Origin: Chthoniobacterales bacterium
GTDB taxonomy: Bacteria > Verrucomicrobiota > Verrucomicrobiia > Chthoniobacterales > UBA10450
Assembly (NCBI GenBank): GCA_049278515.1
Contig: JBAPMH010000453.1
Coordinates: 1 to 26,533 of the forward strand
Reading direction: 5' to 3'
DNA: 26,533 bases
Below are positions 6,911 to 26,533 of the stretch, piece after piece. The notes under the pieces are model-generated. The model did not search any database and was not told the DNA's origin. It saw nothing but the letters and a program-made list of their open reading frames with translations. Each line of letters starts with the position of its first letter. Position 1 is the stretch's first letter. Both the position numbers and the translations under genes were made by a program.

Positions 6911-6915
6911 GGAAT

Positions 6916-10049: not shown

Positions 10050-10086
10050 GAAATGGCCGCTGGGGGTGTTTTGGCGCCGCGGACTG

Positions 10087-10653
<567 letters not shown>

Positions 10654-11039
10654 TCAAGTTTTGAACCGTTTCACGGATCGCGTCGTCTCGTTTCACGGGA
10701 TATTCGATTTTTCAATGAGGGTCATACCAAATCACGCCACTTCAATCAGGTTTGATTCGGTCCGCAGGGCATCGAGGATACAACCCACACCCGCCTTAGC
10801 GGGGCTCAGGCAATACGCCTTGCCGTAAGTCGAAGTCGCTGCCGCTCTGCAAGATTTCGCGAAATCCCAACTCACACGCTCGCTGCCAGATGCCGATTAC
10901 TTCGACGCATCGACAAAGATAGCAGACGATTTGTCTTGCCACAGTCCGCCGGTCGCTACCAAGATGTCATTTGAGTTTCATAAAGGATAGTTCATTACAA
11001 CGAGGCGAAGCATACCGGCAGCGGTTCACAATTGAAGTT

Positions 11040-11069
11040 TTGAAGAAAGGGACGAGAGTGTTGTGATAT
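11040..11069 (+). promoter_or_regulatory. Candidate sigma70-type promoter for the two-gene operon
   Basis: TTGAAG (11040..11045), an 18-nt spacer, then TGATAT (11064..11069), ~38 nt upstream of the ATG at 11108. This is a pattern match only. Confidence 0.25.
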
Positions 11070-11107
11070 GCTGACCTTCATTAAGCAGTGACAGGAGGAG
11101 GCAGGCG

Positions 11108-11443
11108 ATGGCGTCATTCAGGATTTTCGGGCCTTACGTTTTAGACCTCGGCACTCCAGGGCTTGCACCTGGTCGCCATCAGGACACTTTTTGGCTGGGG
11201 TGGGTTCCCCAACCTCAATTTGGCAAATTCACAGCTACCGTCACGAGCCACCCCGGGCCAGAGGTCCCAGGCTCAGAGGAAAAACTGGCACACAGGTTGT
11301 ACACTTCGACCGTCGTAGAATGGGTCCCAGTGGTTAGTCCGCCCCAAGTACGACTAGATCTCGTCATTCATGCACGGTTGTTCAACACGGGAACAATCCC
11401 GATCAGGACTGTTAATCTTTGTATCACCTTCATTGAGCTTTAA
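11108..11443 (+). CDS. Hypothetical protein (111 aa), first gene of a low-GC two-gene operon
   Basis: A strong SD AGGAGGAGG (11093..11101) lies 6 nt before the ATG. The region is visibly lower in GC than the backbone. I recognise no motif; the sequence looks beta-rich and Pro-rich. Confidence 0.6.
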   Translation: MASFRIFGPYVLDLGTPGLAPGRHQDTFWLGWVPQPQFGKFTATVTSHPGPEVPGSEEKLAHRLYTSTVVEWVPVVSPPQVRLDLVIHARLFNTGTIPIRTVNLCITFIEL

Positions 11444-11461
11444 CTTTTTAAGGAGGCGATT

Positions 11462-11704
11462 ATGCGCTTAACAGTAGTACACGACATTCAAGGCAATATA
11501 GCATCCATAGCTGCATCTCCAAAAGACTCACCGGTCATGTACGTCAAATTGGTGGCCGGGCAGCGCGTTGCTGAAATCGACGCACCGGAGCTGAAGCAAG
11601 ATTACGTCAGTGCGCATCTGAGTGAGTTAATCAAAGATCATCGGGTGGCGATCGAGCCGACTGGGGGCAAGCTTGTCAAGATAGGATCCGGGACAGCGAA
11701 ATAG
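11462..11704 (+). CDS. Hypothetical protein (80 aa), second gene of the operon
   Basis: SD AGGAGG (11451..11456) lies 5 nt before the ATG, and the start is 18 nt after the upstream stop. No recognisable motif. Confidence 0.6.
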   Translation: MRLTVVHDIQGNIASIAASPKDSPVMYVKLVAGQRVAEIDAPELKQDYVSAHLSELIKDHRVAIEPTGGKLVKIGSGTAK

Positions 11705-11889
11705 CCGTTCGCGTCGGAGACGCTCGCGCTGCACGATACTGAAATCTTGCTCGCTGAGCAGGAGGACGAGCATCGCGCACGATCTACGCACGCCACTCAA
11801 GACGGTTTCACTCCTTGTCGATCAACTGAAAGGCGAGTTTGAGGACAAAGGAGGCGCGGACTTAGCCGAAGTTTTCGAGATTGCCATAG

Positions 11890-12150
11890 GCGGTCATTCG
11901 CGCCGCTCGCAAGGCGCTGCGAAAGAGCTTTCCCACCGCCACGGAACTCGCTTGCGACAACTACAATTTCTTTGTGATTGGGTTCGGCCCAACAGAACGC
12001 CCTTCGGACTGTATCGTTTCCATCGCCGCCGTAGCAAATGGGGTCGCTTGGGGTTGCCCTGATTTGACGGACAGTGGGCAAGGGGTCAATCGTGCTTTCG
12101 CGGTACTACACGCGTTTTACGTCAGCATTGCGCCTGATGTTTCGCGATAG
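11890..12150 (+). pseudogene. DUF1801-like gene remnant (no start codon; probably frameshifted)
   Basis: The frame is open from the stop at 11887..11889 to TAG at 12148..12150, with no ATG. It reads AVIRAARKALRKSFPTATELACDNYNFFVIGFGPTERPSDCIVSIAAVANGV... This resembles, from memory, DUF1801/YdhG-like proteins (xxYDNYNxxxIGFxxxExxSDxIxSIA). The upstream part (~11810..11889) reads on in a different frame. The family assignment is tentative. Confidence 0.35.
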
Positions 12151-12166
12151 CGTAATTTGCAAATGT

Positions 12167-12200
12167 GAGATCCCTCGCCGTCGCGCAGCTCGGGATGACA
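12167..12200. repeat. Solo right-arm copy of the GTCATCCCGAGCG palindromic repeat family
   Basis: GAGATCCCTCGCCGTCGCGCAGCTCGGGATGACA resembles the right arms at 762..789 and 6460..6490. No matching left arm is nearby. It lies 24 nt from the stop of glmS remnant copy 3. Confidence 0.5.
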
Positions 12201-12223
12201 CGCAGTTTGGATGCCGCGGTAGC

Positions 12224-12485
12224 TCACTCGACGGTGACGCTTTTGGCAAGATTGCGCGGTTTATCGACGTCCCGGCCCAATTCGACGGCCATATGGTAGG
12301 CCAGAAGCTGGAGCGGGATTACGGTCAGGATCGGGCTCACGTAATCCGGAACGGGGGGGACTGAGATGATGTCGTCGGCGATTTTGGCCAGATGTTCTGA
12401 GCCTTTACCCGAGGTCACGGCAATCACAGGGCCCGGACTTGCTCGATGCTATGCAGGTTTTTAGAGAAGATGGCGTCATCCGATT
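12224..12485 (-). pseudogene. glmS 3'-end remnant, copy 3 (~260 nt, frame broken)
   Basis: The listed 67-aa ORF (GTG start) reads [66 protein letters not shown]. Nucleotide similarity to glmS continues upstream to about 12485, after a ~10-nt deletion near 12431 that shifts the frame. The stop is TGA here and TAG in the intact gene. Confidence 0.9.
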
Positions 12486-12503
12486 CCACGAGGGCCGGTT
12501 GGC

Positions 12504-13490
12504 TCAAGGACCGTTCTTGACCGCCTTGTTTGGTTCGCCTTTTCGTCGCGCTTTCATAATAGGCTCCGGTTTCGCCCATTCGCAGAACTCTGCAGCTGAG
12601 CTTTTCATCACGATAGCTGTAACGCCAGCAGCGAGCAGCGGAATTCCTATTTGGTAGTTACTAAATGCTTGTGAAATAGCCGTGGCGAAATAGGTCAGGC
12701 TGTATATTTCGGGAACCTTAGTCGCCCACATCTGGTAGATCGGACTCTTGGTGTCGCAGACAGTACGCCAACCAATTCTTTTCAGCAGGGCACCGACACG
12801 TCTGCCGAGTCCAAATGGGGATGTCGCTTGGTTCGGCGCAGGTAGGAATAGCCGGTCGCCGGATGAAAGCTGGAGTAATCCGTTGTTGCGAACGTCGTCC
12901 AAAAGATACACTGACTTCGCTGGCACTGCGCTCGCCAAATACTCATAGAGTTCCTCTTCGCTTTTGTTCTTCAATAGGAGAATCGCCGCGTTGTGAATCT
13001 CTTCGGGAATTAGAGGGCCCTCATTAGCCCCGATTAATTCCGTCAAAATAGCTTCCTCCTCAAAACGCTCGAAAATTCGTCTCTGCAGCAAGCGGCGCGT
13101 TTTGCTAGAGGAGATTTTGTTTAGATTCTTCAAAACCGATCGAAAATGGGCCTTCGCATCTGAGGTCTTTCTCTGACGGAGCAGTGCCACGGACAGGAGA
13201 AAGGTTGCTTCAATGCGGAGACGACCTCCGACGGGTGACTTCTCGCGAATGCTTACAAAGCCAGACTCGGCTACGGATACGTGATTGCTATCCAGCAGGC
13301 TTTCAAAATACCAGAGACGAGCCTCTAACATTCGGGGATGTTTCACACCGTAATCTGCTAGCAGTGCGTGAATCTCCTTTAGGGTCGCTTCGGCCTGAAC
13401 AATGTCGTGTCGAGTGCAAGCGTCTTTCAGCGTTCGCTCGAGCGGACGAAGTGATGCTAAATGACTTCTGCTTATGGGCTTTACTGCCAT
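12504..13490 (-). CDS. Orphan hypothetical protein (328 aa), immediately downstream of and co-oriented with glmS
   Basis: A long ORF in a lower-GC block. The ATG is 32 nt after the glmS stop, with no obvious terminator, promoter or SD between them. The N-terminal two thirds look alpha-helical. There is a hydrophobic stretch (IGIPLLAAGVTAIVM) near a basic C-terminus. I recognise no catalytic or family motif. Confidence 0.7.
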   Translation of the reverse strand: MAVKPISRSHLASLRPLERTLKDACTRHDIVQAEATLKEIHALLADYGVKHPRMLEARLWYFESLLDSNHVSVAESGFVSIREKSPVGGRLRIEATFLLSVALLRQRKTSDAKAHFRSVLKNLNKISSSKTRRLLQRRIFERFEEEAILTELIGANEGPLIPEEIHNAAILLLKNKSEEELYEYLASAVPAKSVYLLDDVRNNGLLQLSSGDRLFLPAPNQATSPFGLGRRVGALLKRIGWRTVCDTKSPIYQMWATKVPEIYSLTYFATAISQAFSNYQIGIPLLAAGVTAIVMKSSAAEFCEWAKPEPIMKARRKGEPNKAVKNGP

Positions 13491-13522
13491 TACGCCAAGA
13501 TCAAGGGTATGCGTCGCGGCCG

Positions 13523-15424
13523 CTACTCGACAGTGACGCTTTTGGCGAGGTTCCGCGGTTTGTCGACGTCCCGGCCCAATTCGACGGCCATGTGGTAGGC
13601 CAGAAGCTGGAGCGGGACTACGGTCAGGATCGGGCTGACGTAATCAGGAACGGCGGGGACTGAAATGATGTCGTCGGCGATTTTGGCCAGATGTTCCGAG
13701 CCTTTGCCCGAGGTCACGGCAATGACGGGGCCTTTCCGGGCCCGGACTTGCTCGATGTTGTTCAGATTCTTGGAAAAGACGGCGTCGTCCGGGGCGATAA
13801 ATACCGAAGGCAAGTCCGGCCGGACAAGGGCAATAATGCCGTGCTTGAGCTCGGCACTCGGATGGCCTTCGGCAAAGAGATAGGTGATCTCTTTCAATTT
13901 GAGGGCGGCTTCCACGGCGATCGGGAAGTTGAATTGCCGGCCGAAAAAGAGCATGCCGCTCACCGAGGCGTATTTTTTGGCGATGGCTTTGACTTGATCG
14001 CTCAGCTTGAGGACTTCCTCGATCTGCTCGGGCAACGCTTCCAAGGCGTCGATGATCCTGGTCCCTTCGGAAGTGGAGAGGTGACGCATGCGGCCGAGGA
14101 GCAATCCAACCGCGGCAAGAATGGTCACCTGAGAGGTGAAGGATTTGGTGGCGGCCACGCCGATTTCCGGCCCGGCATGCATGTAAACGCCGCCGTCACT
14201 TTCGCGTCCGACGGTGCTGGCGACGTTGTTGCAAATGCCGAGCGTGCGGTAGCCTTTGCGCTGGCTTTCGCGTAACGCGCCCAGGGTGTCCGCCGTCTCG
14301 CCGCTTTGGCTGATCGCGAAGACCAGCGTATCGCGGGTCATGGGAGTGTTGCGGTGGCGAAATTCGCTGGCGTGTTCTACTTCGGTCGGAATCTGCGCGA
14401 GCGCCTCGATCAGGTATTCCCCAATCATCGCCGCATGCAGGGCGGTCCCGCAGCCGGTCAAAACTACCCGGCCCACGTCGCGTAACTGGGCCGGCGTCAT
14501 GTTCAGGCCCCCGAGCTTGGCGGTGCATTCTTCGTGGCTAAGCCGGCCTCGCATCGCATCGCGGACGGACCCGGGCTGCTCAAAAATCTCCTTGAGCATG
14601 TAATGCGGGTAATCGCCCTTGTTGACGTCTGCGTCCGTGAATTCGACTTTGCTGAGCTGGTAATTGCCCCCCTCGCCGGCGACTGAGCTGATCTCGAATT
14701 TGTCGCGCTCAACCGCCACCACGTCGAAATCGTTCAAATACACCGCGTCCCGGGTGTAAGCGACAATGGCGCTGACGTCGCTCGCGAGGAAATTCTCCTC
14801 TTTGCCAACCCCGAGCACGAGCGGGCTGCCGCGGCGCGCGCCGACAATGAAATCGGGAATATCGCGATGGACGAGCGCAATTCCATAGGTGCCGATGACC
14901 TGGCGCAAGGCGGCGCGGACGGCATCAACGAGGCGTCCCTTCTTATTTGCTAAAACCGCGGCCGACCTGCCGTTCGAGCCCGGCGTAGAATCGGCTGTGA
15001 CCGACGCGTCGTAAAGTTTGCCGATCAGGTGGGCAAGGACTTCGGTATCGGTGTCCGAAGCAAAATTGTGGTCGCCGTCCCGAAGAAGCTGATCTTTTAA
15101 CGCCTGATAATTCTCGATAACGCCGTTGTGGACGAGCGCCAGTTTTCCGCTGGCATCGAAATGAGGATGGGCATTCTGATCGGTGGGCTTGCCATGGGTG
15201 GCCCAGCGGGTGTGGCTGATGCCGTAAGTCCCGGTGGGGGGATTGTCCGCCATGAGTTTCCCGAGGGCAGCGATCCGCCCGGCGCATTTGCGCGTCTCCA
15301 GGCGATCGCCATCCACGATCGCTACTCCCGCGGAATCGTAGCCGCGGTACTCAAGGCGGCGCAGCCCATCGAGCAGAATGGGCGCTGCTTCCGACCGTCC
15401 GACGTAGCCGACGATGCCACACAT
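13523..15424 (-). CDS. glmS: Glutamine--fructose-6-phosphate aminotransferase (isomerizing)
   Basis: From the internal ATG at 15424 it reads MCGIVGYVG (Ntn-Cys amidotransferase start), then two SIS domains and the canonical C-terminus [13 protein letters not shown]. The ORF-track start at 15517 adds 31 non-homologous residues. Confidence 0.95.
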   Translation of the reverse strand: MCGIVGYVGRSEAAPILLDGLRRLEYRGYDSAGVAIVDGDRLETRKCAGRIAALGKLMADNPPTGTYGISHTRWATHGKPTDQNAHPHFDASGKLALVHNGVIENYQALKDQLLRDGDHNFASDTDTEVLAHLIGKLYDASVTADSTPGSNGRSAAVLANKKGRLVDAVRAALRQVIGTYGIALVHRDIPDFIVGARRGSPLVLGVGKEENFLASDVSAIVAYTRDAVYLNDFDVVAVERDKFEISSVAGEGGNYQLSKVEFTDADVNKGDYPHYMLKEIFEQPGSVRDAMRGRLSHEECTAKLGGLNMTPAQLRDVGRVVLTGCGTALHAAMIGEYLIEALAQIPTEVEHASEFRHRNTPMTRDTLVFAISQSGETADTLGALRESQRKGYRTLGICNNVASTVGRESDGGVYMHAGPEIGVAATKSFTSQVTILAAVGLLLGRMRHLSTSEGTRIIDALEALPEQIEEVLKLSDQVKAIAKKYASVSGMLFFGRQFNFPIAVEAALKLKEITYLFAEGHPSAELKHGIIALVRPDLPSVFIAPDDAVFSKNLNNIEQVRARKGPVIAVTSGKGSEHLAKIADDIISVPAVPDYVSPILTVVPLQLLAYHMAVELGRDVDKPRNLAKSVTVE

Positions 15425-15460
15425 GACAGAGCGTGACACTAAGCCGTGACGGGCGCAACC

Positions 15461-15530
15461 GATGTAGAGGCGCTCGCCGCGGCGAGCGCCTGTTGTTCGG
15501 TAAGGCGCCTGGCACACGCGCCTCTACATC
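15461..15530. promoter_or_regulatory. Nested palindromes in the glmS/glgC divergent intergenic region (possible glmS leader structure)
   Basis: A 13-bp perfect inverted repeat, GATGTAGAGGCGC (15461..15473) and GCGCCTCTACATC (15518..15530), encloses a perfect 22-nt palindrome GGCGCTCGCCGCGGCGAGCGCC (15469..15490). The palindrome overlaps the left arm by 5 nt, so the two pairings are mutually exclusive. Confidence 0.3.
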
Positions 15531-15581
15531 AATCGGCGAAAATGTTTGATGGTTGCAGCGGCAATCTGCGTTAATTGATTT

Positions 15582-16934
15582 GTGGAAACGAAAAGCCGCT
15601 CAATTCGCCAGGCGCTTTCCCTGGAATCTGCGTCCGCCCTCTCGACCCCCGCGCTGCCTCCCGGTACGACCCGGCGCACCCTGGCGATCGTGATGGGCGG
15701 CGGCGCCGGAACCCGCCTGTTTCCGCTAACGAAGGACCGATCGAAACCCGCCGTCCCGTTGGGCGGCAAATACCGAATCGTCGATATCTCGATCAGCAAT
15801 TGTCTCAACTCCGGTTTGCGCTCGATCTACGTGCTCACGCAGTTCAACAGCATGTCGCTGCACCGGCACATTCAGGCCAGTTACAAGTTCGATAATTTCT
15901 CCCGCAGCTTCGTGGACATCCTGGCGGCCCAGCAAACGCCGGAAGGCTCCCAGTGGTATCAGGGCACGGCCGACGCCGTCCGCCAAAACATGCGCTACTT
16001 CCTGGAGCACCCTTTCGATTACTACATCATCCTTAGCGGGGATCAGCTTTACCGGATGGATTTTCGCGCGCTCCTGCATCAGCACATCCGCTCCGGGGCT
16101 GACATCACGCTCGCCATAAAACCGGTCCCGCGCGAACAGGCCTCGGAATTCGGGATCATGCTCAGCGACGCGGACCGGCGCGTGACTCGTTTCGTCGAGA
16201 AACCGACGGACCCGAATGTGCTAAGCGAGCTTAAAATGGGAGCGGAGCTTCTCGCATCCGCCGGATCGGCCCCAGACGCGGAGCTCTATCAGGCGTCCAT
16301 GGGGATCTACGTTTTCAATCGAAACGTCCTCGTGGAATGCCTCGACAACGACCTGGTCGATTTCGGGAAGCACATCATCCCCCAGGCGATTCAGGAACGG
16401 CAGGTGAGCGGTTACGTTTTCAACGGCTACTGGGAAGATATTGGAACGATCCGGGCGTTTTACGAAGCCAACCTCGATCTGACGGATCTGCTGCCGCAAT
16501 ACAGTTTTTTCGAGGCCTCAGCCCCGATCTACACCCACCCGCGTTTTTTGCCCGGCAGCAAAATCAACGGAGCGACTCTGCGCCAGGCGATCATCGCGGA
16601 TGGTTGCATAATCTCAGACGCGCACCTCGAGCGGTCGGTTATCGGAGTTCGCAGCATCATTCAGAGCGGGGCCACGATTCGAAACAGCATCGTAATGGGC
16701 GCTGACTATTATGAGACTGATGCCGGCGCGCAACGCGGATCGCCGCCGATCGGGATCGGGCGCAATTGTGTGATCGATCGCGCGATTATCGACAAGAATG
16801 CCCGGATCGCGGATGGAGTCGTGATTACACCGGAGGGAAAACCGGCGGACCTGGATGCCGGCAATTACTTTATCCGGGACGGGATCGTAGTGGTGCCCAA
16901 GAACGCGGTGATTCCGCCCGGATTCTGGATTTAG
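15582..16934 (+). CDS. glgC: Glucose-1-phosphate adenylyltransferase
   Basis: LAIVMGGGAGTRLFPLTKDRSKPAVPLGGKYRIVDISISNCLNSG is the GlgC N-terminal signature. A left-handed beta-helix style C-terminus is present. The GTG start at 15582 is uncertain. Confidence 0.9.
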   Translation: METKSRSIRQALSLESASALSTPALPPGTTRRTLAIVMGGGAGTRLFPLTKDRSKPAVPLGGKYRIVDISISNCLNSGLRSIYVLTQFNSMSLHRHIQASYKFDNFSRSFVDILAAQQTPEGSQWYQGTADAVRQNMRYFLEHPFDYYIILSGDQLYRMDFRALLHQHIRSGADITLAIKPVPREQASEFGIMLSDADRRVTRFVEKPTDPNVLSELKMGAELLASAGSAPDAELYQASMGIYVFNRNVLVECLDNDLVDFGKHIIPQAIQERQVSGYVFNGYWEDIGTIRAFYEANLDLTDLLPQYSFFEASAPIYTHPRFLPGSKINGATLRQAIIADGCIISDAHLERSVIGVRSIIQSGATIRNSIVMGADYYETDAGAQRGSPPIGIGRNCVIDRAIIDKNARIADGVVITPEGKPADLDAGNYFIRDGIVVVPKNAVIPPGFWI

Positions 16935-16943
16935 GGAGCGGGG

Positions 16944-17159
16944 TTACCGGCGTTGCTGATTGAGCATCGCGCCCTGGCCTTCTCGCTCCCACTTTTGCTG
17001 TTCGTTCCAAGGCAGGGACGTTTCATGGCTAGCGGTGGGATCGTTGATGAGGGGAGGCGGTTCCTTGGTTGCGCACGAAGCCAGGGCCCCGGCCGCGGCG
17101 AGAAGGAGCGCCAGTCTGATGAGTCGGAAGCCAGAGAGATCAGGAATTGTTGCCAGCAT
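16944..17159 (-). CDS. Small putative lipoprotein
   Basis: FRLIRLALLLAAAGALASC is a signal peptide with a lipobox (LASC). The ORF overlaps the 3' end of the upstream coiled-coil gene by ~20 nt. The start could be 17159 or 17174. Confidence 0.45.
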   Translation of the reverse strand: MLATIPDLSGFRLIRLALLLAAAGALASCATKEPPPLINDPTASHETSLPWNEQQKWEREGQGAMLNQQRR

Positions 17160-17931
17160 AAATGACAGTATCACCCGGTTGGACCTGGACGCCGCGCGCC
17201 AGGCTACTGGTAATTATATCGCCGATGGCGGTGGCAGGTTCAACTGACGAAATCCGGATCCGGCCAATGAACGAGCCACCCCGCAGAACCAGCATTTCTG
17301 AATTCGCCTCGACCCCCTGCCGGCTCCCGAGGCTCAAGACCACAAAGTTGTAGGCCTGGTTAACGGCGAGAACAGTGCCGCGGATGCCGGGGCTTCCTCC
17401 GCCGGCTGGCCGATGTTTCTTTTCCGCTTCGAGCTGGGCAGCCCGCTCCTGGGTGACTTTCATTTTGTCGGAAAGAAGCGTCTTCTCCAATTCGGCGGCC
17501 TCGAGTCGTTTCTTTGCCTCTTCCAATTGAGCTCGTAACTCCGCCGCGGAGGCAGCGGATGGAGAATCTACTGCGGCTGTTTTCGACTCCTCGACGCGCT
17601 TTCGCAGTTCGGTGGTTTCGCTTTCGTTTTCCCGCAATCTTGCCTGCAAATCGCTCTTTTCGGTCTGCGCTTTGACCAACTCCGCTTCCGTGCTGGCCAC
17701 CCTGTTCTGGCTATCGTCGAGTTTCGCTCTGGCGGCGGCGACGGCGGCTTCGCGCCCTGCGATATCCTTTTCGCGGGTAATGCGAAGTTGTTCCGCGGTT
17801 TGGCGGTCGGCGTTGGCCCGGACCACGTCGGAACGCAGCTCGCGCGTCCTTTTCAGATTCAAGACGCCGAAAATGGCCGAGAGGCTAAGCAGCAAGACGG
17901 CACCAAGTATCAGATTCCTGGAAGTAATCAC
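17140..17931 (-). CDS. Membrane-anchored coiled-coil protein with a small C-terminal beta-rich domain
   Basis: N-terminal TM (LILGAVLLLSLSAIFGVL), then ~150 aa of heptad-rich, charged sequence (AELVKAQTEKSDLQARLRENESETTELRKRVEE...), then GTVLAVNQAYNFVVLSLGSRQGVEANSEMLVLRGGSFIGRIRISSV. The function is not identifiable. Confidence 0.65.
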   Translation of the reverse strand: MITSRNLILGAVLLLSLSAIFGVLNLKRTRELRSDVVRANADRQTAEQLRITREKDIAGREAAVAAARAKLDDSQNRVASTEAELVKAQTEKSDLQARLRENESETTELRKRVEESKTAAVDSPSAASAAELRAQLEEAKKRLEAAELEKTLLSDKMKVTQERAAQLEAEKKHRPAGGGSPGIRGTVLAVNQAYNFVVLSLGSRQGVEANSEMLVLRGGSFIGRIRISSVEPATAIGDIITSSLARGVQVQPGDTVIYAGNNS

Positions 17932-18077
17932 AGCAAGGGGGGCGAAGAATTCGCGGGGGGACTAATTGGTATGAAACAGGGGCGGCGCTGGCAATCCCAT
18001 TCGCGCGGGTGGGCGTTTTATCGGGGCCGCTCGGTTTCACGTTGCGCCGATCCGACTTCCATCCTATAGAACGCGAT

Positions 18078-18230
18078 ATGGGTCAGCAACATCGCGTAAG
18101 GGTCAAGCGCCGGCGGCGCGTGGCCTATTTGGAACGTAAGAAAGCAGCGGCGAAAGTTGCTCCAGTTCGGCGGGAGCCGCCGAAGAAAAAAACCAAGCCG
18201 AAAAAGCAAGCCGCTCCGGCGGAAACTTAG
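18078..18230 (+). CDS. Possible small, highly basic protein
   Basis: MGQQHRVRVKRRRRVAYLERKKAAAKVAPVRREPPKKKTKPKKQAAPAET. It lies just upstream of the NYN gene. Compositional bias makes it uncertain. Confidence 0.3.
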   Translation: MGQQHRVRVKRRRRVAYLERKKAAAKVAPVRREPPKKKTKPKKQAAPAET

Positions 18231-18291
18231 GATCCTCAGCAGCCCAGGGCCCGCAAGGCTTGCCGGCTCGTAAAGGAGCTGAGCAGGCAAA

Positions 18292-18696
18292 GTGCGCGCA
18301 GAGTATCTAATCGTTGATGGCCATAGCGTCATTTTTGCCTGGCCGGAGCTGCGCAAATTGCATGGGCGGCGCACCTCACTGGCGCGCGAAGCGTTGACCA
18401 AGAAACTGCGCGATTACCAGGATTGGACCGGGACGCGAGTCGCCGTGGTTTTCGACGGAAAGGGAACGACCGTCAGCGAAATCTCCGATCCGGGAGAAAT
18501 CCAGATTTTCTATTCGCGCGCCGGACAGACGGCTGACTCGATTGTTGAGCGGCTCGCCAGCAAGTATGGAAAAACCTTCAAGCTTCTGGTGGCGACGGAT
18601 GATGTGCTGGAGAAGGAAACTGCCAGTGCGTCCGGCGCCGAATGCATTTCGGCGGAAGCGCTTCGCTGGCTTCTCGAGGAAGCGTCACCGGCCTGA
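18292..18696 (+). CDS. NYN-domain / YacP-like (Rae1-like) putative ribonuclease
   Basis: EYLIVDGHSVIFAWPELRKL...ALTKKLRDYQDWTGTRVAVVFDG...FYSRAGQTADSIVERL...VATDD matches the YacP/DUF901 layout. GTG start. Confidence 0.75.
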   Translation: MRAEYLIVDGHSVIFAWPELRKLHGRRTSLAREALTKKLRDYQDWTGTRVAVVFDGKGTTVSEISDPGEIQIFYSRAGQTADSIVERLASKYGKTFKLLVATDDVLEKETASASGAECISAEALRWLLEEASPA

Positions 18697-18723
18697 TTGC
18701 CGGCCAAACGGTCAGCGCGCCTT

Positions 18724-19170
18724 TTAGGCCGCGCCAGCGAGGACGTGTTGCGGCCGCGCCAGGGCTTCGCGACGAGCCCGCTGCTGGCAGGTGGCGAGGA
18801 CGCGGGACAGGACGCAATAGAGCTGTTCGATCGGAAGATTTTTGCTCACGTAGCCGTTGGCTCCGGCGCGTAACGCGGCGTGCATCCGCTCTTCGTCGTA
18901 TCCGACGCCGGTAAAAACGATGATCGGGAGGGTTTCGCTCATCTCCCGGATGAATGAGATTAGCGAGATGCCATCCACCTTGGGCATGTTCAGATCGACG
19001 ACCACGACGTCGCACTTGTGATGCTCGAGCCAGGCGGCGGTCTGGAAGCCTTCAGTGAGGAACTCGCAGGTATGACTTTTTTGCTTGAGATAAGTAACGA
19101 GGAACTTGGTGATCGCCGGGTCATCATCGATGAGGAGGAACTCGACAGCATCGCGGTTAAGAATTTTCAT
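18724..19170 (-). CDS. Stand-alone response-regulator receiver (CheY-like)
   Basis: FLLIDDDPAITKFL, VVVVDLNMPKVDGISL, IIVFTG and GANGYVSKNL correspond to the DD, phospho-Asp, T and K positions of REC domains. There is no output domain. Confidence 0.85.
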   Translation of the reverse strand: MKILNRDAVEFLLIDDDPAITKFLVTYLKQKSHTCEFLTEGFQTAAWLEHHKCDVVVVDLNMPKVDGISLISFIREMSETLPIIVFTGVGYDEERMHAALRAGANGYVSKNLPIEQLYCVLSRVLATCQQRARREALARPQHVLAGAA

Positions 19171-19354: not shown

Positions 19355-20308
19355 CTAGCTTTTCAGACTCGCGCGGACCGCGTCCAGCTGGCCGGCTGAG
19401 CCAAGCTTCCCATTTTTGTGGGCAATGAATTTCGCGTATTCCTCGACGAAGATTTTGCCTGGCGGGCGAAAATCGAATTCCGCCGGCTTGTCGCGAAAAT
19501 ATTCCCGATGGACTCGTGTCCAAACGAGGCGCCCATCGGTATCGATGTTTACTTTGGTCACACCGAGCTTGGCGGCCGGAAGATATTCCTCTTCGTTCAC
19601 CCCGCGAGCCGACGGATCAAGTTTGCCGCCGGCGGCGTTGATTCGCTGGACTTCCTCGACCGGAACGCTCGAGCTGCCGTGCATGACAATGGGCAGGCCG
19701 GGAATCAGTTCCTTGATCTCTTCGATCACTTCAAAGTGGAGACTCTGTTGCCCTTTGAACTTGTAGGCGCCATGGCTGGTTCCGATGGCGGCCGCGAGTG
19801 AGTCGCAACCGGTGCGCTTCACGAATTCGACGGCTTCCTTTGGATTGGTGAGAGAAGCGTGTCCTTCATCGACTTTGATGTCCTCCTCCACTCCCCCGAG
19901 TTGGCCGAGCTCCGCTTCGACGCTGATGCCCTTCTCATGGGCCCGATCGACCACCCGCTTCGTGATGGCGATATTTTCTTCGAACGACTCGTGGCTGGCA
20001 TCGATCATCACCGAGCTGTAGAAACCCGACGCGATACAGTCGTAGCAAGTCTCCTCATCGCCGTGGTCGAGATGCACGGCGAAAATCGCCTCGGGAAACA
20101 TTTCTTCGGCCGTGCGAATCATCGCTTCGAGCATTCGCTTATCGGCGTATTTCCGGGCGCCTTTCGAGAGCTGAATAATAAACGGCGCCTTGCTTCGAAC
20201 ATTGCCGCTAAACAGCCCCAGGAGCTGTTCCATGTTGTTGATGTTATAGGCCCCGACGGCAAACTTTCCGTAGGCGACTTTGTAGAGTTGGGCGGTGGTT
20301 ACGATCAT
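19355..20308 (-). CDS. fba: Class II fructose-bisphosphate aldolase
   Basis: FAVGAYNINNMEQ, HLDHG, GTSHGAYKF and IVMHGSSSVP are class II FBA motifs. 317 aa. Confidence 0.9.
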   Translation of the reverse strand: MIVTTAQLYKVAYGKFAVGAYNINNMEQLLGLFSGNVRSKAPFIIQLSKGARKYADKRMLEAMIRTAEEMFPEAIFAVHLDHGDEETCYDCIASGFYSSVMIDASHESFEENIAITKRVVDRAHEKGISVEAELGQLGGVEEDIKVDEGHASLTNPKEAVEFVKRTGCDSLAAAIGTSHGAYKFKGQQSLHFEVIEEIKELIPGLPIVMHGSSSVPVEEVQRINAAGGKLDPSARGVNEEEYLPAAKLGVTKVNIDTDGRLVWTRVHREYFRDKPAEFDFRPPGKIFVEEYAKFIAHKNGKLGSAGQLDAVRASLKS

Positions 20309-20366: not shown

Positions 20367-20396
20367 ATCGAAAATCGAAAATCGAAAATCGAAAAT
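20367..20396. repeat. Heptanucleotide tandem repeat (ATCGAAA) x4.3
   Basis: GATCGAAAATCGAAAATCGAAAATCGAAAATGG. It lies in the 92-nt gap between the kinase stop (20401) and the fba start (20308). Confidence 0.9.
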
Positions 20397-20400: not shown

Positions 20401-22398
20401 TCACTCTCCGATCGGAGCGGCCGGGAGCATGACACTGACCGAAGTGCCGTGCGGATTCGAATCGATGTCCACGCGGCCGTTGTGATCGAAAATCGTTCGC
20501 TTCACAATCGGAAGGCCCAGGCCCATTCCGCGTGCCTTGGTGGTGCAGAAAGGTGAGAAAATCTTCTCGCGCAGGTCGGGCGAAATGCCCTTGCCGTTGT
20601 CCTGCACCGTGATGACTACACCGCTGGCGCGATCTCCCTCGCGGATCGATTTAGCGGCCAGGGTGATGCGGGGTTTGCTCTGTCCGGAGGTCGCTTCGGC
20701 GGCGTTGGCTACGAGGTGGGCAAACGCTTCGGTGAGCGCTTCCTCGTCTCCGAGGATTCTCGGGAGGTCGCTCGGCAGGGTTGTGTCGACGGCCACCCCA
20801 TTTTTTGCCACCCGGACCCGCGCCAGTTCGATGGCCTTCCTCACCGAAGAACGGACATCGACCGGCTTCATGACCAATTCGGAGGGATGCGCAAAATTAT
20901 TGATCTGGGTGATGATCTTGTCGAGCCGATCGATCTCCTGGACGACGATCTCGTTGAAATCCTTCCGGAAATCCGGGTCTTCGAAACGCTCCGGAAGCAG
21001 CTGGGCGAAGGTTTTGATGGCCACGAGCGGATTTCGAATTTCGTGCGACATGCTGGCCGCGAGATCTGTCCAGAAGGCGGCGCGGTCCACGAGGTCCTGT
21101 TTCTGGCGGAGATTTTCCTCGGCGGTCAGATCATGGACCACGGCGACGGCCCCGAGCGGTGTTTTTTGGTCGATCAGCCGGCGCGTCTCCACGGAAAGGG
21201 AGCGTCGCGTGTTAGGATCGATCCATTGGCGCGCCGGAAGATTGTCCTTCGCGTCTAACGTCTCCCGCAGGAAGGTCGCAAGGCGCCCGCCGATCGCCTC
21301 GATCGGCTGATTCAAAGCCTCGTGGGCGTCTACGCCGAGGATCTGTTCCGCGGTGGGATTAAACCAGCGGATGTTGGCTTCTTCATCCGTCGCAACAATT
21401 CCGGGCGGGATCGATTTGAGGAGGGTTTCGGCAAGAGTTTTTTGAACAGTGACTTCTTCGTAGAGGAGAGCGTTTTCAAGAACGGTGGAGACGTGCTCGG
21501 CGAGCATCATGAGTCCTTCGAGATCATTGTACTCGAATCGCTGGCCCGTGACGCGGTGGCCGAAAAAAAGCCAGCCGATAATGCGGCCCCGGGCGTGCAT
21601 CGGAACGATTACTTCGGCGCCAAAGGTATCCAAAGCGCGTCGCATCAGGGTACGCTGGGCGGGTTCCACCTGGGGCAGGTTGGCGCGGGAGATCAGGTGG
21701 GCGTGAAGCTCGAACCAGCGCACGAGCGAGTCCCGCTCGCCGTATTCGACCTCGTATGTTTCCGGCAGACAGCGCAGCCCGGCGCGAAGCCGGTAGCGAT
21801 CGCTTTGTCTTATCTTGGAAAAAATGCCTACCCGGCCGACGCCGGTGGCATCAGCAACACTCTCGATCACGCTGGCGAGAAGGGTTTCGACGTTGTCGAA
21901 TCGGCGGAAAACTCGAGGGAAACGCATCAGTGGCATGGATGATTCACGGCGTTCCGGGGCGGGTTCGATCCGCCGCAACGGCTCGGGCACGAACGGGACC
22001 ACTGCGTGCTCTCGCAGGTCGCGGTTTTCTTGTAAAATGCGCAAGTGGTCGAAGCCGCGAGTCACCAGCGCCTGCAATCTGCGCCGGTCGATTTGCAAAT
22101 CCTCGGCCGCATACACGCCGGATTGTTCGACCTCGCGCAGCGGTTCCGAGCGCAGAGTCCCGAGAGCGATCACCAGGATCTCGGGCAGCGCCGCCTGGAC
22201 TTGCTCGAGGAGGTCGCGCGCTTCCTTCGCGCGCAAATCCAAGACCAGAATCGCGGGACTGTTCTGTTGCAGGACGGCGTCCAGCCGATCCGGCGAACTG
22301 ACATGGCGCACCTGCGAGAGCGCGCTGAGAAATGCCTTCACGCGCCGGACAAGGTCTGCATCCTGCGAATAGAGAATGCAAATGGGGCAGGGGTTCAT
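20401..22398 (-). CDS. Cytoplasmic sensor histidine kinase (degenerate receiver-like N-terminus, GAF-like, PAS, HisKA, HATPase_c)
   Basis: H-box [27 protein letters not shown] (NtrB/AtoS-like), plus ATPase boxes VANAAEA, DNGKGI and [11 protein letters not shown]. No TM segments. Its ATG overlaps the stop of the upstream kinase (ATGA at 22395..22398). Confidence 0.85.
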
Positions 22399-24911
22399 GC
22401 CGCGACGACCTCCTCTGCGAACCGAACCAGTGGCAGCAAAATATGAAAGGAGGTGCCTTTCTTGAGTTGGCTTTCCACTTCGATTTGTCCGCCATGCTCC
22501 TGGATGATGCCGTGGACAACGGATAACCCGAGGCCGGTCCCGTAATCCTTGGTGGTGAAGAAAGGATCGAAGACGTGGGGAATGTCTTCGCTCCGAATCC
22601 CCTCGCCATCGTCACGAATCGTAATGCGCAAGACTTCGTGCGAGCCGCCATTAGTCCCCGAAATCGCCGCCACCCATTCGCTGGCGGCGCGGATCTCCGT
22701 CACAACGCTGAGTTCTCCACCTCGGTTCATCGCGTCCATCGCGTTGAGGAAAAAATTAAGGAAAACTTGTTCGAGCTGGTCGGCATCGGCGCGGATAGTA
22801 TCCACATCCGCGTGCCAGGAACGAGTTAATTTGATCTCTTTCTGGTAAAGCCGATGCCCGACGAGCTGGAGCGATTTCTCCAGGACGTCATGGACATGCA
22901 TCGGTTTCAAGACCGGCTTGGCTGGACGCGCGAAGCGCAGCAGCTGATTGACCAGCGAATCGATCCGATCGATCTCGTGGCCGATCAGATTCGAAAAGGT
23001 GTCCCGGAAATCGGAATCCTGATAACGCTCCGGCAAAAGCTGGGCGAACGTTTTGATTGAGACGAGCGGATTCTTGATTTCGTGCGCCATGCCGGCGGAA
23101 AGGGTGCCGAGACTGGCGAGCCGGTCGCTCCGGCGGATCTGCAATTCCAGACGTTTCAGCGCCGTGATGTCGGTCAACACCACAAGTGCGCCGAGCATCT
23201 CGCCTTGTTCGCCGTGGAAGATGGAGCTGCTGGCGCGGACGATGGCGTTATGTTCGCCCAGAGGAAGAACGAGCTCACTGTTTTCCTGCCGGTCTCCCGT
23301 GCGGAGCGTCTCGCACAAAATATCGCGCAGACCCTGCGGCAACCGGTCGAGAGAATGATCGATGATTTTCCCTGGATCGAGTCCGGTGATTTGGCCAGCC
23401 TCATTATTGAATACCGTCACCCGCTCGTCGGCCCCGGCCGCAATTACGCCAGTCGTCAGATTTTCCAGGAGCGTCTCGTTGTAGATCCGGGCGTTCTGAA
23501 CTTCGGTGAACAGTTGCGCATTATCGATCGCGACCGCGAGTTGCCCGCAGAGGACTTGAAGCGCGTTTTGTTCTACTGCGCCATAGATTCGGCCGGAAAG
23601 CCGCGGGCCCAGAAACATGACGCCGGCGAGGTGTTGACGGGAAAAAATCCCCAGCGCCACGGCGGTCTTCGCCTCCTCCATTTGCTCGGCGGCACGTTCC
23701 AGCTCCGGCGTGGTGCGAATGCGGTGCAGCTCGTCGAGCACGAGCACTTCCTGGTTAGCTTCCAGATACGCGATGGTGGGATCGTTTCGGCTCAACCGCA
23801 TCGCCTCGCCGACCGAGTCCGGATGAATCGGCGGATAATGCTGGACATAGGCCTCTTTCTCGGGCAGCAGGATCAAAACGCGATCGGTTCCGACGGCTTC
23901 GCCAATCGTTTTCGCGAAACGATCGAGCAGGTCTTGGAGCGTGGTGACGGATTTCAGAATGCCCGCCGCCTGGTTCATCGTGGATTGGAAATCGATGCCG
24001 CGCGAACCGATGAAAAGCCGGTTCGCAAAGCGTTGCGAGATTCCGCGGGCAGGAGCCATCGCGAAGGCGACCACGAGCGCCGCCGCCAGGTGACCGAACG
24101 TTCGAGCCTCACCGGGAAACAACGGCTTGGAAGCCGTCGAAACGAGCCAGAAGACCAGCGTATAAAGTGCCAGCAAATAAGCTGTCAGAACCGCATAGGA
24201 CGTGACGCGCCGGAAGAAGAAGCCAACATCCATGATCTTCCGGGTCGAGATCCCGTAGGCGATGATCAGGCTGAAGACAACGATCCGAAACGGCGCGAAC
24301 TGAACCGCAATGGCCCGCTCAACGAAGGGGCTGAAAGCGACCAGAATCGCCAGGGCGGTCTCACCCGCAATGACGAACTGGAATTCTACTTTCTGAATTC
24401 CCGAGCTGCGGCGCAGATCGCGAACGCAATAAACGATGACCGCTACGATCGCAGCAATCAGGAAGGCTGCAAAGAACGGGAAGAGCGGCCCGTACTGCGG
24501 AACGGGAATTAATTCGTGACCTGTATCGCCCTGGGGAATTGACGCCGAGCGAAGAAACGATCGGGCATAACAGAGAGCGATGACGGCAAGACTTGGAACC
24601 GCGAGGGTCGCCGAGCGCATTCCAATTTGCTTCCAACCGCCGTCCCGGCACAGAATTCCCAGCCGTAAGAGATTGAACCCATTTACCAAGAGCACGCCGG
24701 TGGCCCATGAGTTCCGGATCCAAAACTCCGCCGCGGGAGCTTCGACGGCGTTGTAGGCAAATTGGAGCGACAAGAGCCACGCGCAGATGAAAAACGAGAC
24801 AACGAAGAAACTTTGATTCGCGTGGTTTTTGGAGTTGGCCCGGAAGACAGCAACGCCGAGCCCGATCTGGATCAGGAGGGCCGCCCAGAGGGAAATGGTG
24901 GCAGCGTTCAT
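22395..24911 (-). CDS. Membrane sensor histidine kinase (~8 TM N-terminal domain, GAF-like, PAS, HisKA, HATPase_c)
   Basis: About 290 aa of hydrophobic helices, then the H-box [27 protein letters not shown] and ATPase boxes NFFLNAMDAM, DDGEGI and GTGLGLSVVHG. The architecture recalls 7TM-type and PrsK-like kinases, but that is a resemblance only. Its ATG overlaps the ketosynthase stop (ATGA at 24908..24911). Confidence 0.85.
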   Translation of the reverse strand: MNAATISLWAALLIQIGLGVAVFRANSKNHANQSFFVVSFFICAWLLSLQFAYNAVEAPAAEFWIRNSWATGVLLVNGFNLLRLGILCRDGGWKQIGMRSATLAVPSLAVIALCYARSFLRSASIPQGDTGHELIPVPQYGPLFPFFAAFLIAAIVAVIVYCVRDLRRSSGIQKVEFQFVIAGETALAILVAFSPFVERAIAVQFAPFRIVVFSLIIAYGISTRKIMDVGFFFRRVTSYAVLTAYLLALYTLVFWLVSTASKPLFPGEARTFGHLAAALVVAFAMAPARGISQRFANRLFIGSRGIDFQSTMNQAAGILKSVTTLQDLLDRFAKTIGEAVGTDRVLILLPEKEAYVQHYPPIHPDSVGEAMRLSRNDPTIAYLEANQEVLVLDELHRIRTTPELERAAEQMEEAKTAVALGIFSRQHLAGVMFLGPRLSGRIYGAVEQNALQVLCGQLAVAIDNAQLFTEVQNARIYNETLLENLTTGVIAAGADERVTVFNNEAGQITGLDPGKIIDHSLDRLPQGLRDILCETLRTGDRQENSELVLPLGEHNAIVRASSSIFHGEQGEMLGALVVLTDITALKRLELQIRRSDRLASLGTLSAGMAHEIKNPLVSIKTFAQLLPERYQDSDFRDTFSNLIGHEIDRIDSLVNQLLRFARPAKPVLKPMHVHDVLEKSLQLVGHRLYQKEIKLTRSWHADVDTIRADADQLEQVFLNFFLNAMDAMNRGGELSVVTEIRAASEWVAAISGTNGGSHEVLRITIRDDGEGIRSEDIPHVFDPFFTTKDYGTGLGLSVVHGIIQEHGGQIEVESQLKKGTSFHILLPLVRFAEEVVAA

Positions 24912-26149
24912 TCGCGAACGCGTTCCACCACCATACTGCTGTTGCCCCCTCCCAGCCCGCGGACGTTAATCAGGGCGCTATTGATCTTGCGGGTTCGCGA
25001 ACGCCCGGGAACATAGTCCAGGTCGCAACGCGGATCCGTTACCTCGTAGTTGGCGGTGGGCGGGATCATCCCGTACTTAAAGCATAAAGCGCACGTGATG
25101 ATCTGATGGGGTCCCGCCGCCGAGAGGGCATTCCCGGTCACGCCCTTGATCGAGCTCATGGGAATGCTGTAAGCCCGGCGGCCGAAGACGCGTTTCACCA
25201 TGTCGGTCTCGATCACGTCGAGAGCTGGATGGCCGGGACCGTAGGCACAAATATAATCGATTTCCTCGGGAGTCTTTCCCGCGTTATCCATTGCCGTTCG
25301 CATGGTTTGTCCCAGCCCAAACAGCTCATCGCTGGCATAGTTGTCACCTTGCGTGCCATAGCCGGTGATTTCAAGATATGGCACCGCGCCGCGCGCTATA
25401 GCCGTCTCGTAATTTTCGAGGACCAACATTCCGGCGCCTTCTGAAATCACGCCAGAATCTCGTAACAAATCGAACGGACGGCTGGCGCGTTCCGGGTCGA
25501 TGTTTCTCGTCGAACTCAAGCCGGCGGCAGAGAAACTGGCCATCGACAACGGAGTGATGGTGGCATCGGTCCCTCCCGCCAGGGCCAGATCGGCTTCTCC
25601 CTGGCGAATCATGGCCGCCGCGGATGCGATTGCGTCCAATCCTGACGGACAGGCGGATGCAATCGTGGTAGCGCGGGAAGAAATCCCAAGCGCCATCGTC
25701 AGCATTTGGGTGGCGGCTTGAGGTTGACAATCGACAACGCCCGCCGTTACCCCACGCGGACCGCGTCGCGACAAGTCGCCCCAACAATCCTCGAGAATGT
25801 CCATCGCCGTGGTGCTTACGCCCAGCATGACGGGGATGGGATGATCGATCGGATGCTTCGAGGGCTCGAAATGCGCGTCAGCTAACGCCATTTTCATCGC
25901 GGCGAAGGCAAACTGGGTGTGACGCGCCATCCGTTTTGGTTTGAATTTCGGGTCGATGTAATCCAGGGGGTCGAAGCCTTTCACCTCGCCGGCGATCCGG
26001 CTTTTGAATGCCGTTGGGTCGAAGCGTGTAATTGTTCCTATGCCGCTGCGGCCCGCGACGAGCGATTCCCAAAAAGCCTCCAGTCCGATCCCATTGGGAG
26101 CGAGGATGCCCATGCCGGTGACGACGACTCTGTTATGTTTTAGCTTCAT
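24908..26149 (-). CDS. FabF-like beta-ketoacyl synthase-fold protein with a non-canonical catalytic triad
   Basis: From the ATG at 26149 (GGAGAG SD upstream) it reads MKLKHNRVVVTGMGILAPNG...RFDP, a typical KAS I/II N-terminus. The active-site Cys context is present (IASACPSGLDAI). The usual AHGT(S/G)T and GHxxGAAG motifs read AYGPGH and GNALSAAG. See findings. Confidence 0.85.
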   Translation of the reverse strand: MKLKHNRVVVTGMGILAPNGIGLEAFWESLVAGRSGIGTITRFDPTAFKSRIAGEVKGFDPLDYIDPKFKPKRMARHTQFAFAAMKMALADAHFEPSKHPIDHPIPVMLGVSTTAMDILEDCWGDLSRRGPRGVTAGVVDCQPQAATQMLTMALGISSRATTIASACPSGLDAIASAAAMIRQGEADLALAGGTDATITPLSMASFSAAGLSSTRNIDPERASRPFDLLRDSGVISEGAGMLVLENYETAIARGAVPYLEITGYGTQGDNYASDELFGLGQTMRTAMDNAGKTPEEIDYICAYGPGHPALDVIETDMVKRVFGRRAYSIPMSSIKGVTGNALSAAGPHQIITCALCFKYGMIPPTANYEVTDPRCDLDYVPGRSRTRKINSALINVRGLGGGNSSMVVERVRE

Positions 26150-26398
26150 GATGACTCTCCTCTCTCTTTGATTCGGATTTGGGCACAAAGGCGTGCATTC
26201 TAATCATTACATTAAATGCAGTCATTATGTTTTTATCGTTGCCCTGTCGAAAGTTATTCACCAAATTTTCGACTTATTCACAAGAAGCATCTTGTGTCGC
26301 CCCGAAAAAGTTCCAGACTCCGAAGACGCCTATTGTGGCGAGGGGTAGCCCAATATACACTCTTTCCGCGGTACGGCCTTAGCTTTCTTCCACCCACC

Positions 26399-26533
26399 AT
26401 GACTGTCGCCTCGGATCTTCCCCAAGTTCTTGTTATCGACGACGAAATGGGTCCCCGCGAAAGTTTGCGGATGCTTTTGAAACCGAACTATCAGGTTCAT
26501 ACGGCCGATTGCGTGGAGGCGGGGATCAAGCTT
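26399..26533 (+). CDS. Response regulator receiver domain, N-terminal part (NtrC-like; runs off the window end)
   Basis: MTVASDLPQVLVIDDEMGPRESLRMLLKPNYQVHTADCVEAGIKL is a typical REC N-terminus (VLVIDDE). It is divergent from the ketosynthase-kinase operon. Confidence 0.7.
   Translation, partial: MTVASDLPQVLVIDDEMGPRESLRMLLKPNYQVHTADCVEAGIKL

Follow-up and report, generated by a model that had tools for sequence, protein, structure and literature searches.

The 26,533-nt stretch analysed here, referred to as the window, comes from the metagenome-assembled genome of a Chthoniobacterales bacterium (assembly GCA_049278515.1, contig JBAPMH010000453.1, positions 1 to 26,533 of the forward strand) and carries at its far end a ketosynthase (KS)-like gene in one operon with two histidine kinase genes, HK1 and HK2, facing a divergent gene for a receiver-histidine kinase hybrid, REC-HK. 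We found that this locus belongs, as type A, to a signalling module conserved in Verrucomicrobiota, Kiritimatiellae and Planctomycetota, the core of which is formed by KS, HK1, HK2 and REC-HK. With somewhat less than even confidence, we read the module as a lipid-signal circuit, in which the KS would make or modify an acyl-derived ligand perceived by the kinases.

A KS-like gene coupled to two histidine kinases

The first gene of the operon (24908..26149, minus strand, ATG start at 26149) encodes a FabF-fold KS-like protein of 413 aa with the Pfam domains PF00109 and PF02801, which has the same length and sequence as database protein P0001, named by NCBI beta-ketoacyl-ACP synthase family protein (ACP, acyl carrier protein). 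It is followed on the same strand by HK1 (22395..24911, 838 aa), for which Pfam gives HisKA_7TM, GAF, PAS, HisKA and HATPase_c domains, and by HK2 (20401..22398, 665 aa), with GAF, PAS, HisKA and HATPase_c; of the divergent REC-HK gene, cut by the window end, the first 45 codons are present (26399..26533, plus strand). Read directly, the KS stop and the HK1 start share an ATGA overlap at 24908-24911 (junction GAATGAAC) and the HK1 stop and the HK2 start another one at 22395-22398 (junction GCATGAAC), the HK2 start being preceded by GAGGAGG. The open reading frames (ORFs), domains and junctions all agree with the original prediction, made from the letters of the window alone, of three minus-strand genes joined by ATGA overlaps. 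The same 4-nt overlaps are kept in related loci, in 71 of 96 for KS/HK1 and in 65 of 66 for HK1/HK2, so those of the window are not due to chance; translational coupling of KS, HK1 and HK2 is kept across relatives and the three genes are presumably carried on a single mRNA. No ACP, ketoreductase, dehydratase or acyltransferase gene was found among the annotated ORFs of the window, which supports the earlier description of the KS as a lone condensing-enzyme homologue inside a kinase operon, without fatty-acid or polyketide synthase (PKS) companions.

A GTDB scan with one genome per species gave 12 Chthoniobacterales/Verrucomicrobiota loci with KS proteins 59-89% identical, below which identity falls to ≤43% and the matches are canonical KSs of other phyla. 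In a wider KS search over 1.84 billion cluster representatives, the nearest relatives (42-55% identity) almost all had the motif Cys-His-Pro-(Asp/His)-Lys-Asn, and these motif-sharing proteins make up a large FabF-like clade without the second catalytic His. One member of this clade, P0121, matches 13 KS families at E ≤ 1e-30 and falls short of the listed cut-off in each; the other 21 members of the clade alignment match the same KS families by E-value, the cut-off comparison covering P0121 alone. Six divergent members and three more loci all showed KS followed by HK1 and HK2 with REC-HK upstream, and a further 80 loci came from scanning metagenomes with two peptide patterns specific to the clade.

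When the 101 loci with a KS devoid of the second His are pooled, HK1 lies immediately downstream of KS in 83/83 loci where at least 1 kb was available, HK1 and then HK2 follow in 50/51 loci with at least 3.6 kb, and REC-HK is found upstream of KS in 47/48 loci with at least 4.5 kb. The surveyed relatives are soil and aquatic Verrucomicrobia-type bacteria, and their KS sequences, together with that of the window, fall into 58, 25 and 12 clusters at 90%, 80% and 70% identity, respectively. As a rough control, we considered 16 canonical Cys-His-His KS loci of other phyla: 14 had no kinase match nearby and in the remaining two a kinase was located downstream but not adjacent, as in L020 (loci are cited by our own labels), from a deltaproteobacterial metagenome-assembled genome (MAG), where a HisKA_7TM-GAF kinase lies 400 nt downstream of the KS with an NtrC gene beyond it. 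What these counts support is a linkage close to obligatory inside the KS clade, rather than one spread widely over the bacteria. The original prediction had left open whether the combination of KS, two kinases and a regulator was conserved in other taxa; the counts above show that it is not confined to this genome, and the Kiritimatiellae and Planctomycetota loci described below extend it beyond the source lineage.

The active site of the KS-like protein

The window KS scores 158.9 bits with PF00109 and 81.5 bits with PF02801 and aligns from residue 4 to 410 with the solved FabF 4ls5 (E = 5e-86), its identity to solved FabFs being about 40%. With the fabF equivalog TIGR03150 it scores 359.3 bits against a cut-off of 493.75, and it is also below the cut-off of every other curated KS model. 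In the alignment to 4ls5 the nucleophilic Cys is kept, within the motif ASAC, the first catalytic His is replaced by Tyr (AYGPGH in the window, AHGTST in FabF) and the second by Asn (VTGNAL in the window, MTGHLL in FabF), giving an active site Cys167/Tyr303/Asn340 where FabF has Cys-His-His (C163/H303/H340).

Residue conservation was counted over 120 orthologue clusters of 74-100% identity, at positions in what we take to be the E. coli FabF numbering, which is supported by its agreement with the PDB alignment to 4ls5. The position of Cys163 is Cys in 120/120 clusters, as well as in 22/22 sequences of the clade alignment, that of His303 is Tyr in 111 clusters and His in nine, and that of His340 is Asn in all 120. 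Thr305 is replaced by Pro and Thr307 by His, the latter in 120/120; gate residue Phe400 is Leu in 117/120 and Met in 3/120, and the second gating loop, FabF 268-271, is removed by a four-residue deletion in all 120. Lys335, Asp311 and Glu314 are invariant, and the residues at positions 65, 68, 69 and 127, which we take to be ACP contacts, remain basic. Presumably the residues that are lost served the malonyl-decarboxylation half-reaction and those retained serve ACP docking and acyl acceptance. Position 303 switches between His and Tyr in close relatives, as in L012 and L013.

Compared with FabF/KAS II, the protein has the same fold, length, Cys, Lys335, Asp311/Glu314 pair and basic positions, but both His are replaced, the gate Phe and the two Thr are changed, the 268-271 loop is deleted and the gene stands outside a fab cluster. 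Since His303, His340 and Phe400 have become Tyr, Asn and Leu, the KS is, as judged from its sequence, FabF-derived and not a canonical condensing enzyme. The strict constraint on Cys, Lys335, Asp311, Glu314 and Asn340 argues for chemistry at the Cys rather than for a decayed relic.

Known families were considered and rejected in turn. A housekeeping FabF is ruled out by the TIGR03150 cut-off, by the triad and by the gene context; no fab gene (acpP, fabG, fabD or others) was present in the window or in the annotated or tblastn-typed flanks of related loci, taken over 7-10 kb or to the contig end. A chain-length factor (KS-beta) or KS partner of type II PKS was discarded because the Cys, which chain-length factors replace (usually by Gln), is invariant and no second KS gene, such as the KS-alpha adjacent to a chain-length factor, occurs in module loci, and the KAS III/chalcone-synthase family because Pfam matches only KAS I/II-type domains. 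In the type B loci described below, Cys-His-Asn is set on a FabF scaffold, so the triad resembles that of KAS III and the family does not. On these sequence features the KS falls outside FabF, chain-length factors and KAS III as those families are defined.

Kinases, module types and surrounding DNA

HK1 and HK2 are ordinary class I histidine kinases, the former with the H-box MAHEIKNPL (HisKA 50.5 bits, HATPase_c 86 bits) and the latter with MSHEIRNPL (HisKA 52.6 bits, HATPase_c 80.8 bits). Both had been described as having NtrB/AtoS-type H-boxes; HEIKNPL and HEIRNPL are indeed present and AtoS (NF008468) is the best NCBIfam match of both kinases, at scores of 336.7 for HK1 and 251.2 for HK2 that are below the cut-off of 646, and NtrB (NF008293) is likewise short of its cut-off of 240, with 138 for HK1 and 109 for HK2. 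Identity with the PrsK/PrsR system of PEP-CTERM/exosortase loci was rejected, TIGR02916 giving 81 and 105 bits against a cut-off of 300 in a match limited to the kinase core; no exosortase gene turned up in the examined loci. HK1, a multi-pass membrane kinase, has about 8-9 hydrophobic segments by hydropathy and a HisKA_7TM region; its transmembrane part diverges fastest (22-64% identity), whereas the DHp domain shows 94-100% identity within type A and 81-84% between types A and B. HK2 is soluble, and over its first ~165 residues it can be aligned as a receiver-like domain, with Asp13 of the acidic pocket and Asp54 at the phospho-acceptor position invariant; the conserved receiver Lys is absent from HK2 in Verrucomicrobiota and present in the Planctomycetota homologue, where Pfam recognizes Response_reg.

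The 45-codon divergent fragment of the window matches the N-terminus of a 382-aa protein of locus L001. Full-length orthologues (382-384 aa) consist of REC, HisKA and HATPase_c domains, with the H-box FVHDLGNPL and a HATPase_c score of 98.8 bits, and no sigma54 AAA+ (Sigma54_activat) or HTH domain (HTH_8) was found in the REC-HK gene of any orthologous locus. Of the divergent NtrC-like response regulator that had been proposed, the receiver-domain start at 26399 stands, and the NtrC-like label has to be replaced by that of a REC-HK hybrid.

From orthologues on long contigs and from tblastn typing, we derived the type A gene order. REC-HK, an ~800-aa protein and a ParA-like ATPase are read in one direction and KS, HK1, HK2 and a class II aldolase in the other; beyond the aldolase come LpxD in some loci, a 148-aa receiver and an oppositely oriented NYN gene. 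Tyr is found at position 303 in all type A loci except L012. Type B, comprising a Kiritimatiellae MAG (L038) together with L037, L042, L055, L059, L062 and L120-L122, keeps His303 and has the triad Cys-His-Asn. On its divergent side it carries an outer-membrane channel of the FadL/TodX family next to REC-HK, and an NtrC-type sigma54 regulator is usually located downstream of HK2; NtrC-type genes occur in type B only, after HK2, and in no type A locus. The FadL/TodX channel was found in L033, L037, L038, L042, L059, L062 and L120-L122. In five type B loci a methyltransferase adjoins the module, belonging to three unrelated families (Methyltransf_2 in L037, L059 and L062, class I in L121, ICMT/PEMT in L122), and L037 and L120 contain a FAD_binding_4 oxidase.

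A third architecture was observed in a Planctomycetota MAG, L033, which shares four components with the module. There, a REC-HD (HD_5) gene followed by FadL diverges from a REC-GAF-PAS gene followed by a B12 radical-SAM gene, KS and a HisKA_7TM-GAF-PAS kinase, and the KS triad is Cys-His-Gln. The B12-binding radical-SAM enzyme (L033 8169-9992) shares 4 nt with the KS start, and close by is a SPASM radical-SAM gene; judged by family, these genes suggest alkyl-chain modification chemistry in that lineage.

The triad thus degenerates stepwise across groups, from Cys-His-His in the loosely linked deltaproteobacterial locus through Cys-His-Asn in type B to Cys-Tyr-Asn in type A, and the more degenerate form goes with the loss of FadL, methyltransferase and NtrC genes. 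Polysaccharide genes (Poly_export, Wzz/GNVR, Bac_transf, a chitin-synthase-like GT2 and polysaccharide deacetylase) flank L036, L037, L120 and L121, a weak hint at surface polysaccharide as a regulated output.

The divergent intergenic region of the window (26150-26398) is, as predicted, 249 nt long and AT-rich, with 45% GC against 58% for the window. It contains on the minus strand the direct repeat GTGAATAA at 26274-26281 and 26254-26261, 20 nt apart (GTGAATAA-N12-GTGAATAA), which is a candidate operator. Of 79 type A intergenic regions, 52 have two exact copies in the same orientation, 20-21 nt apart, and 75 have one copy or more. A sigma70-like promoter candidate for the KS operon, identified by consensus match, lies at 26197..26225 (minus strand; -35 ATGACT, 17-nt spacer, -10 TAGAAT), and its two hexamers are conserved at a fixed distance from the GTGAATAA repeats in orthologous loci. 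A sigma54 promoter was rejected for the window's intergenic region, where the only match was an off-spacing GG...GC. Directly after the HK2 stop, tandem heptads ATTTTCG (coding strand) occupy 20367..20396 on the minus strand (Tandem Repeats Finder: period 7, 4.3 copies, 100% match). The four copies are perfect in the window, and imperfect GATTTYC-type versions are found at the same place in many orthologous loci, some of them only about 60% identical in KS; the heptads could be a promoter element of the aldolase gene or an array of binding sites.

In type B, TGTACA-N4-TGTACA dyads were found in the FadL/KS spacers of the four NtrC-bearing loci inspected (L037, L038, L121 and L122), and a good sigma54 -24/-12 box (e.g. 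TGGCAT-N5-TTGCT) faces the FadL-REC-HK operon in L038 and L121. L120, a type B locus without NtrC, has neither dyads nor sigma54 boxes. This co-occurrence of dyads and boxes with NtrC, both motifs being consensus matches, suggests that the type B module autoregulates the operon for its uptake and relay.

The class II fructose-bisphosphate aldolase of the window (19355..20308, minus strand; Pfam and NCBIfam) begins 92 nt downstream of HK2 on the same strand, with no obvious terminator between the two, and stays immediately behind HK2 in most type A loci, also where the remaining flanks vary. It may be co-transcribed with the kinases, its membership in the operon being uncertain. The stand-alone 148-aa receiver (18724..19170, minus strand; Response_reg 86.8 bits) is conserved near the module in type A, and its domain content makes it a candidate partner in the phosphorelay or a candidate phosphate sink; the nearby genes of type A include no DNA-binding response regulator that could account for the GTGAATAA repeats.

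For the DNA beyond position 26533, the original prediction had suggested a sigma54-type AAA+ domain or exosortase/exopolysaccharide genes. Orthologous loci show instead the ~800-aa protein, which resembles the N-terminal domain of LanB, and the ParA-like ATPase. The LanB-N-like protein (L001 6118-8541) scores 66.7 bits with Lant_dehydr_N, above the Pfam cut-off, and gave no NCBIfam match and no PDB sequence match. Its gene lies downstream of REC-HK and is translationally coupled in several loci to that of the ParA/MinD-like ATPase (5187-6164). The protein matches only the N-terminal (glutamylation) domain family of lantibiotic dehydratases, and neither a precursor peptide nor an elimination domain was seen with it; by this match it may act like a tRNA-dependent ligase or have nothing to do with ribosomally synthesized and post-translationally modified peptides.

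The rest of the window (1-18700) is of housekeeping character and encodes FtsK (845-3292), a MiaB-like radical-SAM enzyme (4106-5476), tRNA-Arg(CCG) (6284-6359), a RoxA-like cytochrome c (8263-10011), GlmS (13523-15517), GlgC (15582-16934) and an NYN/YacP protein (18292-18693), as well as an HTH_25 protein and RNase HII. Between 10000 and 12500 the GC content is 0.53-0.54 against 0.58 and only short ORFs (≤111 aa) are present, with no Rfam or tRNA match in this interval. As regards anti-phage defence, no meaningful PADLOC match was obtained.

Possible roles of the KS and their significance

In a lipid-signal circuit of the kind outlined at the beginning, the KS would use the Cys that it has kept and its basic ACP-docking residues to tap the acyl-ACP pool, and would release or modify a fatty-acyl-derived molecule, without chain elongation. 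The hydrophobic ligand would be perceived by the membrane domain of HK1, possibly also by the PAS or GAF domain of HK2, and would act on a phosphorelay of three kinases and the single-domain receiver. The output would be, in type B, the NtrC/sigma54 regulator, probably driving the FadL-REC-HK operon, and candidates for it in type A would be the co-oriented LanB-N-like and ParA-like genes and the 148-aa receiver. Gene order, overlaps, conservation, domains, active-site substitutions and intergenic motifs are the observations from which we infer that KS and kinases are functionally linked, that the ligand is a lipid and in which direction phosphotransfer runs. The reading is supported by the near-obligate linkage, the conserved coupling, the constrained catalytic residues and the parts for hydrophobic molecules in type B, where FadL channels and methyltransferases fit a hydrophobic, possibly methyl-esterified ligand. 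Further support comes from the type B dyads and sigma54 boxes and from the likeness to two known systems.

In the Ralstonia phc operon, a signal enzyme (PhcB), a sensor kinase (PhcS), a soluble protein with receiver and kinase domains (PhcR) and a single receiver (PhcQ) are found together (PMC8578825). The window has counterparts of this layout in KS, HK1, REC-HK and the 148-aa receiver, as an analogy of layout only; REC-HK is, like PhcR, a soluble receiver-histidine kinase without DNA-binding domain, and the Phc signal is a methyl 3-hydroxy fatty acid, several type B relatives carrying a methyltransferase. The two differ in that the Phc enzyme is a methyltransferase and the one here a FabF-fold KS, and in the extra REC-like-GAF-PAS kinase and the divergent position of REC-HK. 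In Xanthomonas, RpfF generates the fatty-acid signal DSF (diffusible signal factor), which is sensed by RpfC and by the PAS-domain histidine kinase RpfS (PMC4159695); a membrane sensor and a PAS-domain kinase for one fatty-acid signal are a precedent for HK1 and HK2. RpfF, however, is a crotonase and not a KS, the kinase domain architectures are unlike, and no homology is claimed. DSF is made from acyl-ACP, and RpfG is a REC-HD-GYP protein, which the REC-HD (HD_5) regulator of the Planctomycetota locus recalls.

Several points weigh against the lipid-signal circuit. Type A has Tyr303 (111/120) and is devoid of FadL, methyltransferase and NtrC genes, so the support for a small molecule comes from relatives and not from the locus of the window; nor does type A encode a thioesterase, an exporter or a tailoring enzyme. 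The KS (75-95% identity within the order) is more conserved than the sensor parts of HK1, as would be expected of a protein bound by several macromolecular partners no less than of a signal synthase. Moreover, since motifs of the clade itself were used to recruit the metagenome loci, and soil Verrucomicrobiota predominate among them, the linkage is less broad than the raw counts suggest.

The main rival, which we hold to be somewhat less likely and which may apply especially to type A, is a non-condensing pseudoenzyme: the KS would dock acyl-ACP and, as a co-sensor, report the state of fatty-acid or membrane-lipid synthesis to HK1 and HK2 by direct contact. The decarboxylation and gating residues are lost (His303, His340, Thr305, Thr307 and Phe400 having become Tyr, Asn, Pro, His and Leu, and 268-271 being deleted), Cys163 and the basic residues at FabF 65, 68, 69 and 127 are kept, and the protein may be acylated on Cys167. 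A precedent is given by the KS0 domains of trans-AT PKS, which accept and transfer acyl groups without decarboxylative condensation and likewise keep the Cys and lose the His of the HGTGT motif; those are, however, domains within megasynthases beside ACPs, whereas the KS is a free-standing protein of a signalling operon. The interchange of His and Tyr at position 303 between L012 and L013 indicates that a base is dispensable there, the 4-nt KS/HK1 overlap suits stoichiometric co-production, and the very high conservation of the KS, along with an HK1 DHp domain 94-100% identical within type A, suggests many fixed partners. On the other hand, the FadL channels and methyltransferases of type B suggest a small molecule that is extracellular or tailored, and not an internal read-out of acyl-ACP. 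In KAS III/chalcone-synthase enzymes the Cys-His-Asn triad is competent for decarboxylation, and with Asn340 invariant the type B KS proteins may be fully catalytic.

It is improbable, in our estimate, that the KS is a lipid-metabolic enzyme merely co-expressed with its regulators, remodelling or degrading an imported hydrophobic substrate and having no sensing role. AtoSC regulates an operon that includes a thiolase, and AtoS is the best NCBIfam match of both kinase cores; with its FadL/TodX channel and NtrC-type sigma54 regulator, type B has the classic layout of substrate-induced uptake known from AtoS/AtoC and TodX/TodS/TodT. The AtoS match is, however, far below its cut-off (336.7 against 646 for HK1), three kinases are found here instead of one, and the window has neither NtrC nor FadL. 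In addition, the KS is the first and translationally coupled gene of the sensor operon and not part of the putatively regulated FadL operon, and it is the sole metabolic gene conserved in the module, with no ACP, reductase, dehydratase or CoA ligase in any architecture. Least likely of all, and hardly credible to us, is that the adjacency is inherited synteny within one lineage without functional meaning. Most surveyed loci do come from related soil Verrucomicrobiota and housekeeping neighbours such as the aldolase are syntenic too, but the core is kept in type A, type B and the Planctomycetota locus with entirely different flanks in each, conservation extends to the 4-nt overlaps, and of the canonical Cys-His-His KS loci 14/16 have no kinase match and the other two no adjacent one.

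The two ideas of the original prediction, a maker or modifier of a signal and a non-catalytic sensor subunit, are thus still the leading hypotheses. It is conceivable, although we think it on the unlikely side, that a FabF-fold protein which has abandoned elongation is the obligate input of a three-kinase network, either as a covalent acyl sensor or as a lipid-autoinducer synthase.

A full-text search of 8 million texts returned no KS-kinase module, no function for HisKA_7TM and no lipid quorum sensing in these phyla, and nothing relevant on FabF-type Cys-His-Asn enzymes; the arrangement, new to the earlier reader, has no description in the literature searched. Two-component systems with an accessory enzyme or a signal synthase are known. 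Within that literature, what is new here is that a homologue of condensing enzymes is a constant member of a multi-kinase module, with translational coupling. The module abounds in soil Verrucomicrobiota and is present also in Kiritimatiellae and in one Planctomycetota MAG, groups that are ecologically important and genetically little studied. If the KS makes the signal, it would define a new autoinducer family with its receptor and a form of cell-cell signalling undescribed in the literature searched; if it senses acyl-ACP, a core metabolic fold would have been recruited as a kinase input, a new input class of two-component systems. With its graded active sites, the series from Cys-His-His to Cys-Tyr-Asn is a natural experiment in how an enzyme may evolve into a regulator.

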